Shown here in pieces: positions 90 through 3,351 of a stretch of DNA of 64,000 bases (the first letter of the stretch is position 1; each line of letters starts with the position of its first letter). The stretch lies in NCBI GenBank assembly GCA_016198705.1, contig JACQIA010000066.1:3610-67609 (forward strand), written 5' to 3'. A program made the translations under genes and the position numbers. The stretch comes from Candidatus Aenigmatarchaeota archaeon (lineage in GTDB: Archaea > Aenigmatarchaeota > Aenigmatarchaeia > CG10238-14 > SCSR01). Below the pieces are notes generated by a model. It searched no databases. It was not told the DNA's origin and worked only from the letters and a program-made list of their open reading frames with translations.

Positions 90-494
90 ATGGCTCAACA
101 ATATTTAAAAAGAATGGAATCTGCAAGGGTTGCTCTCAATCGAGCAAGAAGCGATCTAATTGAACATTGTACAAGAGGTATAAAAGAATTAATGGAAGTT
201 GGTTATCCGAGAGATGTAATGCTTGGTGAAATAGAATATAGACTAGCTTCTAGTATGCCAGGTCGCACATGGAAGTATTGGTTACACGAAGGAAGATTGT
301 GTATTGACACTGGATTAGTCGGTGATCCGAGGGAAATATCGTACCGTGTTGTAAGAGAAGTGACACCTGATGTGCTAATAGAAATGCAATTACAACAATT
401 ACCTTTTGAACAATATAATGAAGATACGCTTAAACGGGTCGCACAGAACATAGAAGAGGGATTAAAACAATCTAAACCTGTTCCCCAACAATAA
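90..494 (+). CDS. hypothetical protein (134 aa)
   Basis: Intact ORF with no recognisable motif. It lies where rpoK/eno would be expected downstream of rpoN in the canonical archaeal order. Confidence 0.35.
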   Translation: MAQQYLKRMESARVALNRARSDLIEHCTRGIKELMEVGYPRDVMLGEIEYRLASSMPGRTWKYWLHEGRLCIDTGLVGDPREISYRVVREVTPDVLIEMQLQQLPFEQYNEDTLKRVAQNIEEGLKQSKPVPQQ

Positions 495-625: not shown

Positions 626-832
626 TTACGGTTTAAATTGACTGACTTCCTTTAACAAATCTATGTTTCCCATGAAGGTCTGTCTGCAGCAATAACGGAC
701 TAATCCCAAGCTATCCAAAACCTTTTTACCATCCCCACCCTTCTCCAAGCCTTTCGTATATTTTTCCCATAAATGCCCTACGACTTTACCACAAGTTATG
801 CAACGGACTGGAACGATTATTTTTACCACCAA
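626..832 (-). CDS. rpoN: DNA-directed RNA polymerase subunit N (Rpb10 homolog)
   Basis: 68 aa. N-terminal IVPVRCITCGKVVG zinc-binding motif and CCR..F tail are typical of RpoN. It is downstream of rps9, as in archaeal operons. Confidence 0.85.
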   Translation of the reverse strand: MVVKIIVPVRCITCGKVVGHLWEKYTKGLEKGGDGKKVLDSLGLVRYCCRQTFMGNIDLLKEVSQFKP

Positions 833-845
833 TTAATTTAATTCA

Positions 846-1772
846 TTACTGATTTTGAGTATTTAAAACTTTAAGCAAGTATGGAATGTCTAGATTTAGA
901 GCCTCTAAAATCTTTCTGAAATTCTTAACACTAAAGTTTCTTTTCATCAACTCAACATCTCTTATATTTTCTCTTCTAATTCCAATTTTCTTACCGAATT
1001 GATTCTGTGACAAACCTAATTCAAATCTCCTTTTTCTTAGAATTGGACCAAGATCTTTTACATTTGATAATATTTTAATCCAGTCTTCTTCTCTAGGCCA
1101 TTTGTCTTTAAAGAATTTTTGTTCATGGTAGATCCCTTTGGCTCCAGTTGTGCAGTTTTCTATTTCAGATGGACAATCTAGTCCTATGAATTTAAAGAAT
1201 CTGAAAGGTGTACCATCTTGAGTATTGGAGTATAGGCAATAACCGCATTTCTTGCCTGTAAAACCACTTTTATATTCAACAGGATAAAAGTTTAATCCTA
1301 ATTCTTTTAATTTACCAATCAAGATATCGATATTCTCTTTTGAAAAACAATTTGTAGCCAAGACTATAAATGGTACTCTATTTCCATCGTTTTTCCTTCT
1401 TACTAAACACCCATCTCCCAAATACCAAAAAAGCAACTTTATGGGAGTAATCTCCAAATTAGAAGGTAATATTTTGACTGTTTTACCACTTATTCTAGTA
1501 TACCACTCTTTTCTTAAAGAAAGAAATTTAGGATAAGGGCAGGTATTGATGTAAAAGCCCAACATGAACAAATCTGTATTATTTCGTGAAATCCAACAAT
1601 TAATGCCGCTCATGTTAAAATACTTTGCTACCCATTTTAAGAATTCTACATCTTTACCAACAATTTGAAAAGTGAAATATTTTCCGTCTTGTGACCTTAT
1701 ACTGCCATCACCAAGTAACCCACCTTCGATAATCTCATTAAGTATCATGTATACCACTTTATTTATATACAT
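846..1772 (-). CDS. free-standing LAGLIDADG homing-endonuclease-like protein with C-terminal XRE-type HTH
   Basis: Two LAGLIDADG-type motifs (IIEGGLLGDGSI and LLFWYLGDGCLV) about 100 aa apart, plus a C-terminal HTH_3-like segment (RKRRFELGLSQNQFGKKIGIRRENIRDVE). Sits between rps9 and rpoN. Confidence 0.6.
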   Translation of the reverse strand: MYINKVVYMILNEIIEGGLLGDGSIRSQDGKYFTFQIVGKDVEFLKWVAKYFNMSGINCWISRNNTDLFMLGFYINTCPYPKFLSLRKEWYTRISGKTVKILPSNLEITPIKLLFWYLGDGCLVRRKNDGNRVPFIVLATNCFSKENIDILIGKLKELGLNFYPVEYKSGFTGKKCGYCLYSNTQDGTPFRFFKFIGLDCPSEIENCTTGAKGIYHEQKFFKDKWPREEDWIKILSNVKDLGPILRKRRFELGLSQNQFGKKIGIRRENIRDVELMKRNFSVKNFRKILEALNLDIPYLLKVLNTQNQ

Positions 1773-1831
1773 TATTAGTATATGTTAATAAAACTTTTTC
1801 TAAAGTAGAAAGTATATATTATGAAATATAT

Positions 1832-2254
1832 TTAACGCTTGCTCCTTTGTTTGTGCCTACGAGAACCACGTTTTGACGCCCCACCAGCATGATGAGGTTC
1901 ATTTCTCCTAGGATCATAAACTAGCATATTCCTATTATACTGCATAAAAGTACTCCTCAAATCCTTGCTCTTGGAAAACTCTACTAAACCTTTGGCAATA
2001 GCCATCCTAGCAGCCTCAGCCTGCCCAACAACGCCACCAGACCTGACACTAACATCAACATTCACTTTATTCGCCCAGTCACCAGCCAGCAACAAAGGCT
2101 CTTTAACCCAAAGCCTCAGCACCTCGCTGCCCCATATGTCCAAAGGAGTTGAATTTATCTTAACCACACCACTTCCTGGAATAACTTTAGCTCTGGCTAT
2201 TGCTAATCTCCTTTTTCCTGTAGTGAACAACACCTTTTGGTCCTTCTTTTTCAT
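1832..2254 (-). CDS. rps9: 30S ribosomal protein S9 (uS9)
   Basis: 140 aa with basic C-terminus ending ...RRHKQRSKR, characteristic of uS9. Follows rpl13. Confidence 0.9.
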   Translation of the reverse strand: MKKKDQKVLFTTGKRRLAIARAKVIPGSGVVKINSTPLDIWGSEVLRLWVKEPLLLAGDWANKVNVDVSVRSGGVVGQAEAARMAIAKGLVEFSKSKDLRSTFMQYNRNMLVYDPRRNEPHHAGGASKRGSRRHKQRSKR

Positions 2255-2667
2255 TTCATTCCACCTATAGAATTGGATATCTCGCCCAAGGTAATGTATT
2301 TATTCTTCAATTTACTTGCGTCGGCAATTGATATTTTTTCAAAAGTTCTATCCTTGAATTCTTCCGGCACACCAACAAACACTTTTAGATTCTTAAACGC
2401 ACTTCTACCCTTGGTTCTATCCCAAGGCAGCATCCCCCTCACTGTTCTTCTTAAAATTTCATTAGGGTATTTGGGGAAGAAAGGGCCATGTATAGCGTCA
2501 CCACGTTCAAGCCTGTGGAAATAAAACTCTACTTTTGACTTTGGATTCCCTGACAGGACTGCCTTTTCACTATTCACAACAATTATCCTTTCCCCGTTTA
2601 ATAATTCCTTGGCTACAACAGACGCAAGTCTTCCAAGTATCTGATTTTCAGCATCGTAAAATTTCAT
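2251..2667 (-). CDS. rpl13: 50S ribosomal protein L13 (uL13)
   Basis: 138 aa. Sits between rpl18e and rps9 as in the conserved order. Overlaps rps9 by 4 nt (translational coupling). Confidence 0.85.
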   Translation of the reverse strand: MKFYDAENQILGRLASVVAKELLNGERIIVVNSEKAVLSGNPKSKVEFYFHRLERGDAIHGPFFPKYPNEILRRTVRGMLPWDRTKGRSAFKNLKVFVGVPEEFKDRTFEKISIADASKLKNKYITLGEISNSIGGMK

Positions 2668-2671
2668 ACAA

Positions 2672-3049
2672 TCACATTAAAATTCTGACACCAGTTCCCT
2701 TTGGATTAATCTTCATCAATTCCTCAATTGCTATAGGTCTGCATTTGGCTTTCCTCATTTTTTCTAACGCTGACGAAGAAAATCTCCAAGCAGCTATGCT
2801 AACTGTCTTTGTTAATTCACCGTTGCCAAGAACTACTCCAGGCACAACCACAGCTCCGCCATCCTGTGCATACTTGCTTATGTCGGATAAGTTCACTTCC
2901 ACCCTCTGCCTTCTTGGCTTCCCCAGCTTCTCTGCCACGTCTCTCCATAGAGGTGCACCTACTTCATAAGAGTTCTTTTTCAGCATTTCTATCAATTGTT
3001 TCAAATACGCGTTTGTGGGGCCTGTTCTTCTGCTCATAGTCATCAGCAA
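2672..3049 (-). CDS. rpl18e: 50S ribosomal protein L18e
   Basis: 125 aa with MSRRTGPTNAYL N-terminal region typical of L18e. Upstream of rpl13. Confidence 0.8.
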   Translation of the reverse strand: MLMTMSRRTGPTNAYLKQLIEMLKKNSYEVGAPLWRDVAEKLGKPRRQRVEVNLSDISKYAQDGGAVVVPGVVLGNGELTKTVSIAAWRFSSSALEKMRKAKCRPIAIEELMKINPKGTGVRILM

Positions 3050-3087: not shown

Positions 3088-3172
3088 TGCGCCAATCGGG
3101 ATTTGAACCCGAGCCACAAGCTGTTTCCTTTAATTGGGAAGCTCGTATCCTACCAGGCTAGACTATTGGCGC
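3088..3172 (-). tRNA. tRNA-Gly(CCC) with about 12-nt intron at canonical 37/38 position
   Basis: Minus-strand read: acceptor GCGCCAA/UUGGCGC plus discriminator A; D-arm GUCU-AGCCUGGUA-GGAU; anticodon stem CGAGC/GCUUG with loop UUCCCA[intron AUUAAAGGAAAC]A; T-arm UCGGG-UUCAAAU-CCCGA. An alternative parse gives Trp(CCA). Confidence 0.6.
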
Positions 3173-3253: not shown

Positions 3254-3351
3254 GCGCCGAGAGGGAGATTTGAACTCCCAAGAGCTTTCGCTCGCTGGTT
3301 CACTTCCAATAGACTCAAGACCAGTGCCATACCGGATTAGGCGATCTCGGC
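3254..3351 (-). tRNA. tRNA-Ser(UGA) with long variable arm and about 13-nt intron
   Basis: Acceptor GCCGAGA/UCUCGGC with discriminator G and encoded CC; 3-bp D-stem; anticodon stem CUGGU/ACCAG with loop CUUGAG[intron]A; long variable arm CGAGCGAAAGCUCUU; T-arm GGGAG-UUCAAAU-CUCCC. Confidence 0.55.

Follow-up and report, generated by a model that had tools for sequence, protein, structure and literature searches.

I-SceI and I-WcaI are monomeric nucleases of the LAGLIDADG_2 type that are encoded in group I introns of yeast mitochondrial 21S rRNA genes. Homing endonucleases of this kind make a double-strand cut at one long target (14-22 bp or more) in alleles without the endonuclease gene. In T-even phages, Seg and Mob are independent genes that lie between conserved genes, show presence/absence polymorphism and co-convert flanking markers; they and I-TevI are GIY-YIG or HNH enzymes, and co-infection of the phage hosts provides the transfer route. 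The yeast HO endonuclease is derived from an intein, has an added C-terminal zinc-finger DNA-binding domain and is fully domesticated for mating-type switching. In restriction-modification (R-M) systems, controller (C) proteins time and limit expression of the nuclease from an operator in its promoter. To our knowledge, free-standing LAGLIDADG homing endonuclease genes have rarely been described in the chromosomes of cellular prokaryotes. HO (F-SceII) is itself a free-standing LAGLIDADG enzyme, I-TevI joins a nuclease to a DNA-binding domain that contains a helix-turn-helix (HTH) and represses its own promoter, and the bacterial transcription factor WhiA (DUF199) has lost both the acidic and the basic catalytic residues (PMC3384342). 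The rRNA genes of DPANN archaea contain group I introns with LAGLIDADG_1, LAGLIDADG_2 and LAGLIDADG_3 genes, including one case from Aenigmarchaeota (PMC6125680). Here we describe a LAGLIDADG-HTH gene, which we call LHE, between rps9 and rpoN in a 64,000-nucleotide stretch of contig JACQIA010000066.1 from a Candidatus Aenigmatarchaeota archaeon (the whole stretch is called the window below). We consider it probable that LHE is a free-standing, site-specific homing endonuclease gene of the rps9-rpoN junction, active or recently active, with a fused controller-type HTH, and that all stages of its homing cycle can be seen among related archaea.

An earlier note, made from the letters of this DNA, had reported a 308 amino acid open reading frame (ORF) at 846-1772 on the minus strand, with two LAGLIDADG motifs and a C-terminal HTH_3-like segment, as an independent gene of the rpl18e-rpl13-rps9-rpoN block that is not part of an intron or intein. 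ORF calling and domain searches bear this out, including the same-strand flanks, with a change at the start. The second ATG (M9, window 1748) is where the homologues and the NCBI model P0001 (an identical protein of 300 amino acids, “Candidatus Aenigmarchaeota archaeon”) start, and the true gene is therefore most likely 846-1748. We class LHE as free-standing because, lying between two complete genes, it is equipped with a start, leader and stop of its own, and because an Rfam scan of the window returned tRNAs only, with no intron match. The features of the locus are:

846-1748 (-): LHE, most likely 300 amino acids; stop codon TAA at 846-848; the in-frame upstream ATG at 1772 would give 308 amino acids
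1266-1736 (-): predicted double LAGLIDADG_2 nuclease core, I-SceI-like; amino acids 13-169 by Pfam, with the fold reaching approximately amino acid 200
1698-1724 (-): LAGLIDADG motif 1, GGLLGDGSI, amino acids 17-25; codon of the predicted catalytic Asp D22 at 1707-1709
1404-1430 (-): LAGLIDADG motif 2, FWYLGDGCL, amino acids 115-123; codon of the predicted catalytic Asp D120 at 1413-1415
1062-1265 (-): most conserved stretch of the LHE family, amino acids 170-237 (...GxKG...F..KWP..DW...), with invariant alignment columns
876-1040 (-): C-terminal HTH of the XRE/Cro-C1 type, amino acids 245-299, Pfam HTH_3
860-875 (-): archaeal B recognition element (BRE)/TATA-like element (CTTAAAG TTTTAAATA), with the TATA box at 860-868, within the last 10 LHE codons and approximately 30 nucleotides upstream of the rpoN start
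1749-1831 (-): leader from the rps9 stop to the LHE start, 83 nucleotides; candidate promoter/operator of the element
1832-1870 (-): final 36 nucleotides of rps9 plus its stop codon, which move with the element and contain the left recombination breakpoint
1240-1869 (-): segment recently common to the window and the metagenomic contig L085, comprising the rps9 3' end, the leader and more than the N-terminal half of LHE
1832-2254 (-): rps9 (ribosomal protein uS9), upstream flank
626-832 (-): rpoN (RNA polymerase subunit N/Rpb10), downstream flank, with a non-ATG start (TTG at 832 or GTG at 829)
2251-2667 (-): rpl13
2672-3049 (-): rpl18e

The N-terminal part of the protein matches the Pfam family LAGLIDADG_2 (PF03161; amino acids 13-169, E 8.6e-18, 65 bits with a cutoff of 25) and not PF00961 or PF14528, the families that the earlier note had suggested. 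The C-terminal part matches HTH_3 (PF01381; amino acids 245-299, E 4e-10). When a profile of 31 family members is compared with the PDB, I-WcaI (E 1.7e-10) and I-SceI (E 2.9e-9) are found, and the alignment places D22 on D44 of I-SceI (GLILGDAYI) and D120 on D145 (WFMDDGG). A confident AlphaFold2 model, computed from the family alignment (predicted local distance difference test (pLDDT) score 93, predicted template modeling (pTM) score 0.90) has helices at residues 2-20 and 110-120, with beta pairs after each. Its best Foldseek match in the PDB is I-SceI (E 2.7e-9, 25% identity), followed by I-WcaI, PI-SceI, WhiA (8dy9_I, E 6e-6), I-Tsp061I, I-DmoI, I-AniI and I-OnuI. The secondary structure and pLDDT of the model assign amino acids 170-237 to the last core strands and a small linker subdomain that joins the HTH. 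A CxxC...C...C pattern at amino acids 175-207 was considered as a zinc site and rejected, as the cysteines vary between clades in the family alignment.

We counted residue conservation among 147 non-identical full-length family members. D22 is retained in 145 of 146 and D120 in 146 of 147, so that the catalytic residues the earlier note had wanted checked are near-invariant. K40 is basic (K/R) in 143 of the 147 and R132 in 135; these positions, placed by sequence only, are plausible equivalents of K43 and K130 of I-DmoI. Taken together, alignment and model point to an I-SceI-type monomeric two-motif nuclease with both metal-binding Asp residues intact, for which cleavage is predicted.

A word-indexed search returned 163 relatives of approximately 300 amino acids, each with both domains. 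The named ones come from Aenigmarchaeota metagenome-assembled genomes, and a few are labelled Nanoarchaeota or MSBL1. An exhaustive search of 1.8 billion representatives gave just 19 clusters at E<1e-30, including many fragments, and the weaker matches beyond these clusters cover the LAGLIDADG core alone. The family appears to be essentially confined to Aenigmarchaeota. The comparison set comprises approximately 160 related loci (L numbers below). In all contexts retrieved from family proteins, LHE lies directly 3' of rpl18e-rpl13-rps9 on the same strand, and every copy found at loci anchored on rps9 is likewise directly 3' of that gene. When metagenomes were scanned with the family alignment, rps9 proved to be directly upstream at 52 of the 62 loci that have enough upstream DNA. 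Among the 10 exceptions is one ectopic copy without an rps9 neighbor (L124 2995-3951; P0107, 318 amino acids, 52% identical), approximately 750 bp from a divergent C5 cytosine DNA methyltransferase gene (L124 1059-2246(-)). The remainder form a sister subfamily (37-40% identical, 373-410 amino acids) with an extra N-terminal XRE HTH, in the order HTH-LAGLIDADG_2-HTH. Its genes (L142 2161-3324; L143 1028-2149; L146 634-1866; L159 2740-3909) always follow the NAD(P)HX dehydratase (Carb_kinase) gene directly on its 3' side, a second fixed site, and with two HTHs a single monomer could recognize both half-sites of a palindrome. The 64-kb window has no second LHE copy and no copy of the sister subfamily. 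In the literature searched, we found no published account of the LHE family, of a LAGLIDADG_2 and XRE-HTH fusion, or of a homing site at rps9/rpoN.

Further LAGLIDADG elements are present in the same genomes. A free-standing gene for a 325 amino acid LAGLIDADG_3 protein lies between a hexapeptide transferase gene and glmS (L001 7824-8801), and a LAGLIDADG_3 intein is found in an inositol-1-phosphate synthase gene (L002, 9909 to the end).

How often is the junction occupied? We surveyed it by a genome scan anchored on Rps9 rather than on LHE, which gave 80 species-representative loci, nearly all from Aenigmatarchaeota. Their rps9-rpoN junctions fall into the following states:

Intact LHE copy: 9 of 80 loci
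Degenerate copy or remnant (frameshifted, internally deleted or a stub) with a protein-level trace: 7 of 80
Short gap without a protein trace: 21 of 80
Tight or overlapping junction: 10 of 80
Unrelated insert: 11 of 80
rpoN elsewhere: 15 of 80
Too little downstream DNA: 7 of 80, of which 3 show an LHE start at the contig end

Universal presence at the site, the case that the earlier note had set against its proposal, is not what we see. The presence/absence polymorphism that it had asked about extends to the closest relatives and is accompanied by decayed copies; the hosts nearest to that of the window by S9 (L005-L007, 80-86%) lack LHE. Our own first idea, a vertically conserved domesticated gene, had come from the first four contexts and from the finding that LHE is as conserved as S9, and was overturned by this survey. 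Over all loci there are 55 intact copies, 15 that are frameshifted or internally deleted, and 18 cut by contig ends.

The degenerate copies form a graded deletion series, L027 > L023 > L018 > L006/L007 > L025. In L027 the leader and first LHE codons are fused to the last approximately 25 codons (the internal deletions of L016 and L040 resemble this one). L023 retains approximately 30 LHE codons and L018 fewer; L006 and L007 retain only the last approximately 30 nucleotides (CTTAAAGTTTTAAATACTCGAAAT...), and L025, L030 and L032 the TATA-like box alone. L006 and L007 had been candidates for naive empty target sites and were rejected, as the 3' end that they keep puts them at the end of this series. 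More generally, most of the nearby empty alleles do not represent naive sites: the short-gap junctions close to the window are deletion remnants of LHE, and the suggestion in the earlier note that a clean cognate target could be read from the empty allele has to be revised. Tight junctions of the L065/L073 type read ...AAGAGATAAATGATAATCCC....

An alignment of filled and emptied junctions shows that relatives in which the remainder of LHE is deleted always retain its 3' end with the BRE/TATA-like element. This suggests that the element now supplies the rpoN promoter, at 860-875, which would constrain how the element can be deleted. Members of the clade with the element or its remnants begin rpoN with GTG or TTG and have a short N-terminal extension of its product (M-V/I-K-I-I-V-P-V-R), whereas in tight-junction taxa rpoN starts with ATG (M-I-I-P-V-R). 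The start region that rpoN has today may come from the element.

The junction is also a general hotspot in Aenigmarchaeota, with unrelated genes inserted in 11 of the 80 species. These include HD-domain-like and Nudix-like ORFs in L068, L072, L076 and L082, and others in L017, L024, L047, L077, L008, L013 and L044; L077 and L044 still show what is left of the endonuclease element (a leader or HTH remnant). In L026, a different 443 amino acid LAGLIDADG protein (1340-2671; FFAGLFDADGNV motif, weak LAGLIDADG_3 match, E 0.0036) occupies the same junction behind the leader that precedes LHE in the window (ATATATTTCATAATATATG...), as if one cassette had replaced another at a single site. We also considered the choice between CGN and AGR in the final Arg codon of rps9 as a target-site immunity polymorphism. 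CGN is enriched in gene-linked alleles (35 of 73 vs 13 of 62), but the difference is by no means diagnostic and is confounded by phylogeny, and the idea was dropped.

Intact LHE pairs have ratios of nonsynonymous to synonymous substitution (dN/dS, Nei-Gojobori) of 0.07-0.15, indicating purifying selection. At depth, the LHE tree roughly follows that of S9 and L13 (mean pairwise identity 0.586 vs 0.576). A sharp departure from this pattern is seen between the window and L085, whose nucleotide identities are:

rps9 body: 66.4%
Last 36 nucleotides of rps9 plus stop codon: 94.9%
Leader: 90%
LHE codons 9-177: 96.1%
Remainder of LHE: 72-85%
rpoN: 66.7%

For LHE codons 9-177 against the rps9 body, Fisher p is 2e-33, and the proportion of synonymous differences (pS) is 0.14 in the first 170 LHE codons vs 0.57-0.79 in the remainder. 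The hosts of L085 and L088 have S9 proteins that are 97% identical; the LHE allele in L088 is a different one (74%), with a different leader. A second comparison, of L086 with L088, shows an rps9 body that is 88-97% identical and an N-terminal half of LHE that is only approximately 50% identical; the drop begins in the last approximately 60 nucleotides of rps9, and C-terminal mosaic blocks are 90-97% identical. Alleles have thus been exchanged across hosts, with the left breakpoint in the rps9 3' end in both comparisons. A break near the rps9 stop, repaired with short co-conversion, should leave such a pattern. A partial copy in L014, 84% identical to that of the window, was considered as a second transfer and rejected, given that amino acids 122-298 of the window copy are 75-87% identical to its closest homologues anyway. 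For amino acids 9-121 the identity to the same homologues is 49-64%. The N-terminal half-domain evolves faster than the rest of LHE and is also the part swapped in both recombinants (L085 and L086); one may speculate that this fits a shifting specificity for one half-site.

Sequence searches of NCBIfam and the PDB detect only the HTH, and the closest proteins are HipB-type antitoxins and R-M controller proteins; the PDB matches are C.BclI (5e-8 with the family profile) and HipB. The leader in the window contains an inverted repeat, ATATATT-TCAT-AATATAT (1814-1831), that abuts the rps9 stop, as well as a near-palindrome (CTTTCTAC/TTTAGAAA) and a TATA-like TTTTATTAA. This leader is also present in L085, L086, L027 and L026. 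Another clade has the palindrome TATACTTAAGTATA and longer perfect palindromes, and a third has two copies of TTGGTACCAA that flank a TATA box. In some clades, small ORFs of antitoxin families, preceded by perfect palindromes, lie between rps9 and LHE. One kind, of approximately 40 amino acids and DUF7557/VapB-like, precedes LHE on the same strand (in the leaders of L020, L088, L090, L100, L102, L106, L109, L011 and L094; in L090 at approximately 1587-1710). The other, of 58 amino acids and AbrB/MazE-like, precedes it on the opposite strand (L001 4769-4945(-), also L089, L092 and L093). The LHE copy in the window has no small partner ORF.

These observations can be joined into a homing cycle. 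The N-terminal approximately 200 amino acids, as seen in sequence and model, would form an I-SceI-type nuclease with both metal-binding Asp residues. It would make a double-strand cut in junction alleles without LHE, close to the rps9 stop codon, and repair of the break from an LHE-bearing copy would bring in the element and, with it, a short piece of rps9 from its 3' end. In two independent comparisons 36-60 nucleotides of rps9 travel with the element, for which a cut by the nuclease is the presumed cause. After fixation LHE would decay and then be deleted, which would account for the graded series from frameshifts to 30-nucleotide stubs. The deletions would have to spare the 3' end, because it carries the predicted promoter of the essential rpoN; its retention is seen directly. 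The fused XRE HTH may repress the promoter of the element through the leader palindromes, and expression of the nuclease would be tightly controlled, either by this HTH or by the small partner ORFs. Alternatively, the HTH may add DNA-binding length and extend the contact of the nuclease with DNA, by analogy with the added domains in HO.

LHE has the marks of a homing endonuclease (a LAGLIDADG fold with an acidic residue at the end of each LAGLIDADG helix) and those of a mobile gene: a fixed site, presence/absence polymorphism, degenerate copies beside intact ones, and same-site transfer with co-conversion of the flank. It is not embedded in a self-splicing intron or intein. Several points weigh against a homing endonuclease gene. 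Inheritance of LHE is largely vertical, with sharp exceptions, and its long-term retention could therefore reflect a benefit to the host. The breakpoint pattern is by itself no proof that the LHE nuclease made the break, and the exchange could be ordinary homologous recombination between alleles rather than nuclease-driven homing. L085 and L086, the clearest recombinants, are short contigs from one metagenome, for which assembly chimerism is possible; neither is a simple join of other sequences in the comparison set. The nuclease activity and the target site are both predictions from sequence. No naive empty allele was found in any close relative of a carrier among the loci surveyed, and there is no known route of DNA transfer between the host cells. 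Viral contigs of IMG/VR contain no close homologue, only distant LAGLIDADG_2 proteins (25-33% identity) that all lack the HTH, and a viral vector was rejected on this ground.

The earlier note had offered two readings, an active selfish element and a domesticated regulator. Our results favor the first, because the Asp residues are near-invariant, the gene is not universal and alleles are laterally exchanged. The second is the weaker one and is kept in play by the purifying selection, the rough co-divergence with hosts at depth and the predicted rpoN promoter inside LHE. Stated fully, the second reading makes LHE a domesticated or dual-function transcription factor of the host at rps9/rpoN, analogous to WhiA, inherited vertically from an early Aenigmarchaeota ancestor and repeatedly lost in genome reduction, with a vestigial nuclease. 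A LAGLIDADG core with a C-terminal HTH is indeed the architecture of WhiA, which is itself among the fold matches, but what defines domestication of the WhiA type is that the catalytic residues, acidic as well as basic, have been lost (PMC3384342), and the catalytic Asp residues of LHE are near-invariant. A dN/dS of approximately 0.1, a divergence that matches the ribosomal proteins and the congruence of deep clades with the hosts would suit a vertically inherited host gene; however, LHE is absent or decayed in most sampled species, including the nearest relatives of the window, which is hard to square with an important regulator, and alleles have been exchanged between hosts that differ by 30% in S9. 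The predicted rpoN promoter within the 3' end of the coding region and leader palindromes typical of operators fit regulation as well, and with I-TevI there is already one homing endonuclease that acts as repressor of its own promoter (PMC3384342). Overall, we regard a host regulator as unlikely, though as the main rival to a homing endonuclease gene.

It is tempting to hypothesize, though we do so only tentatively, that LHE is a selfish nuclease part-way to domestication, which has captured the rpoN promoter and probably the rpoN start region and whose HTH sets its own level and that of rpoN, i.e., an archaeal “proto-WhiA.” If so, the host could erode the element but never remove it cleanly, and LHE would show how a LAGLIDADG and HTH transcription factor arises from a homing endonuclease.

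LHE could also be an immobile relic of one ancient invasion that has decayed at varied speeds, in which case the mosaics would be products of ordinary recombination and the window copy would be intact by chance or recently inactive. The many pseudogenes and deletion stubs, the deep congruence with the host tree and the failure to find a viral or plasmid vector are all compatible with such a history. However, 55 intact copies with dN/dS of 0.07-0.15, in lineages with saturated synonymous sites, cannot be neutral survivors; the catalytic residues are kept in approximately 99% of full-length copies, and breakpoints recur at the rps9 3' end. We therefore think a relic quite improbable. Least probable of all, and very unlikely in our view, is an addiction or defense module in which the nuclease is a toxin or anti-invader enzyme restrained by the controller-type HTH and, in some clades, by the small upstream antitoxin-like partner: the similarity of the HTH to R-M controller proteins and HipB antitoxins, the antitoxin-family ORFs in several clades and the methyltransferase gene near the ectopic copy in L124 speak for it, but these small ORFs are clade-specific and missing from the window, the strict linkage to one chromosomal junction is unlike defense islands, and the defense-system models of PADLOC match LHE only generically (“HEase” on the core, 1.4e-12, and “Control_protein” on the HTH, 9e-8), with no other match.

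Three further features were seen beside the block in the window. A 134 amino acid ORF adjoining rpoN (90-494 (+)) has no Pfam match at E<=1. Upstream of rpl18e lie a 97-nucleotide tRNA match found by Rfam only and missed by ARAGORN (3255-3351 (-)), and an 85-nucleotide match called tRNA-Arg with its anticodon at an odd position, 27 (3088-3172 (-)). Each may be an archaeal tRNA with an intron or with some other atypical feature.

If LHE is a homing endonuclease gene as we propose, the whole homing cycle can be followed within one phylum, from intact copies under selection through frameshifts, internal deletions and 30-nucleotide stubs to allele replacement. The pattern implies that diverged DPANN archaea exchange DNA. 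The family may also yield compact I-SceI-like meganucleases with an extra DNA-binding module and with natural allelic variation in one half-domain.

Compared with the known systems, I-SceI and I-WcaI remain the best sequence and fold match. LHE shares with them two LAGLIDADG helices per chain, GDA/GDG motif ends, aligned Asp residues (D44/D145) and a core of approximately 200 amino acids, at approximately 25% identity. Unlike them, it is not intron-encoded but a free-standing gene in an archaeal chromosome; its site is the intergenic junction of the rps9 stop and the rpoN start rather than an rRNA gene, and it adds a conserved linker and an XRE HTH of together approximately 100 amino acids. 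The group I introns in DPANN rRNA genes are a plausible source of the nuclease core. Like the phage genes Seg and Mob and like I-TevI, LHE is wedged between conserved genes, is polymorphic and has a co-conversion-like tract, but it belongs to the LAGLIDADG enzymes and its host is a cellular DPANN archaeon without a known transfer route. With HO it shares the free-standing LAGLIDADG core and the extra C-terminal DNA-binding domain; the added domain of LHE is an XRE HTH and not a zinc finger, and there is no evidence for a host function. The closest relatives of that HTH are the C proteins of R-M systems (C.BclI, C.AhdI and C.Esp1396I), from which it differs in being fused to the nuclease rather than forming a separate dimeric protein; its binding to an operator is putative. 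Finally, LHE shares with WhiA the LAGLIDADG core tethered to a C-terminal HTH and yet lacks the features that define WhiA. The HTH of WhiA is of a different type from the XRE/Cro-C1 (Pfam HTH_3) domain of LHE, and LHE has no WhiA match in Pfam or NCBIfam. WhiA is universal and vertically inherited in Gram-positive bacteria, whereas LHE is sporadic, decaying and exchanged, and it keeps D22 and D120 where WhiA has lost its catalytic residues. LHE may therefore serve as a counterpart of WhiA, predicted to be catalytically intact, that is useful for understanding how nucleases become regulators.

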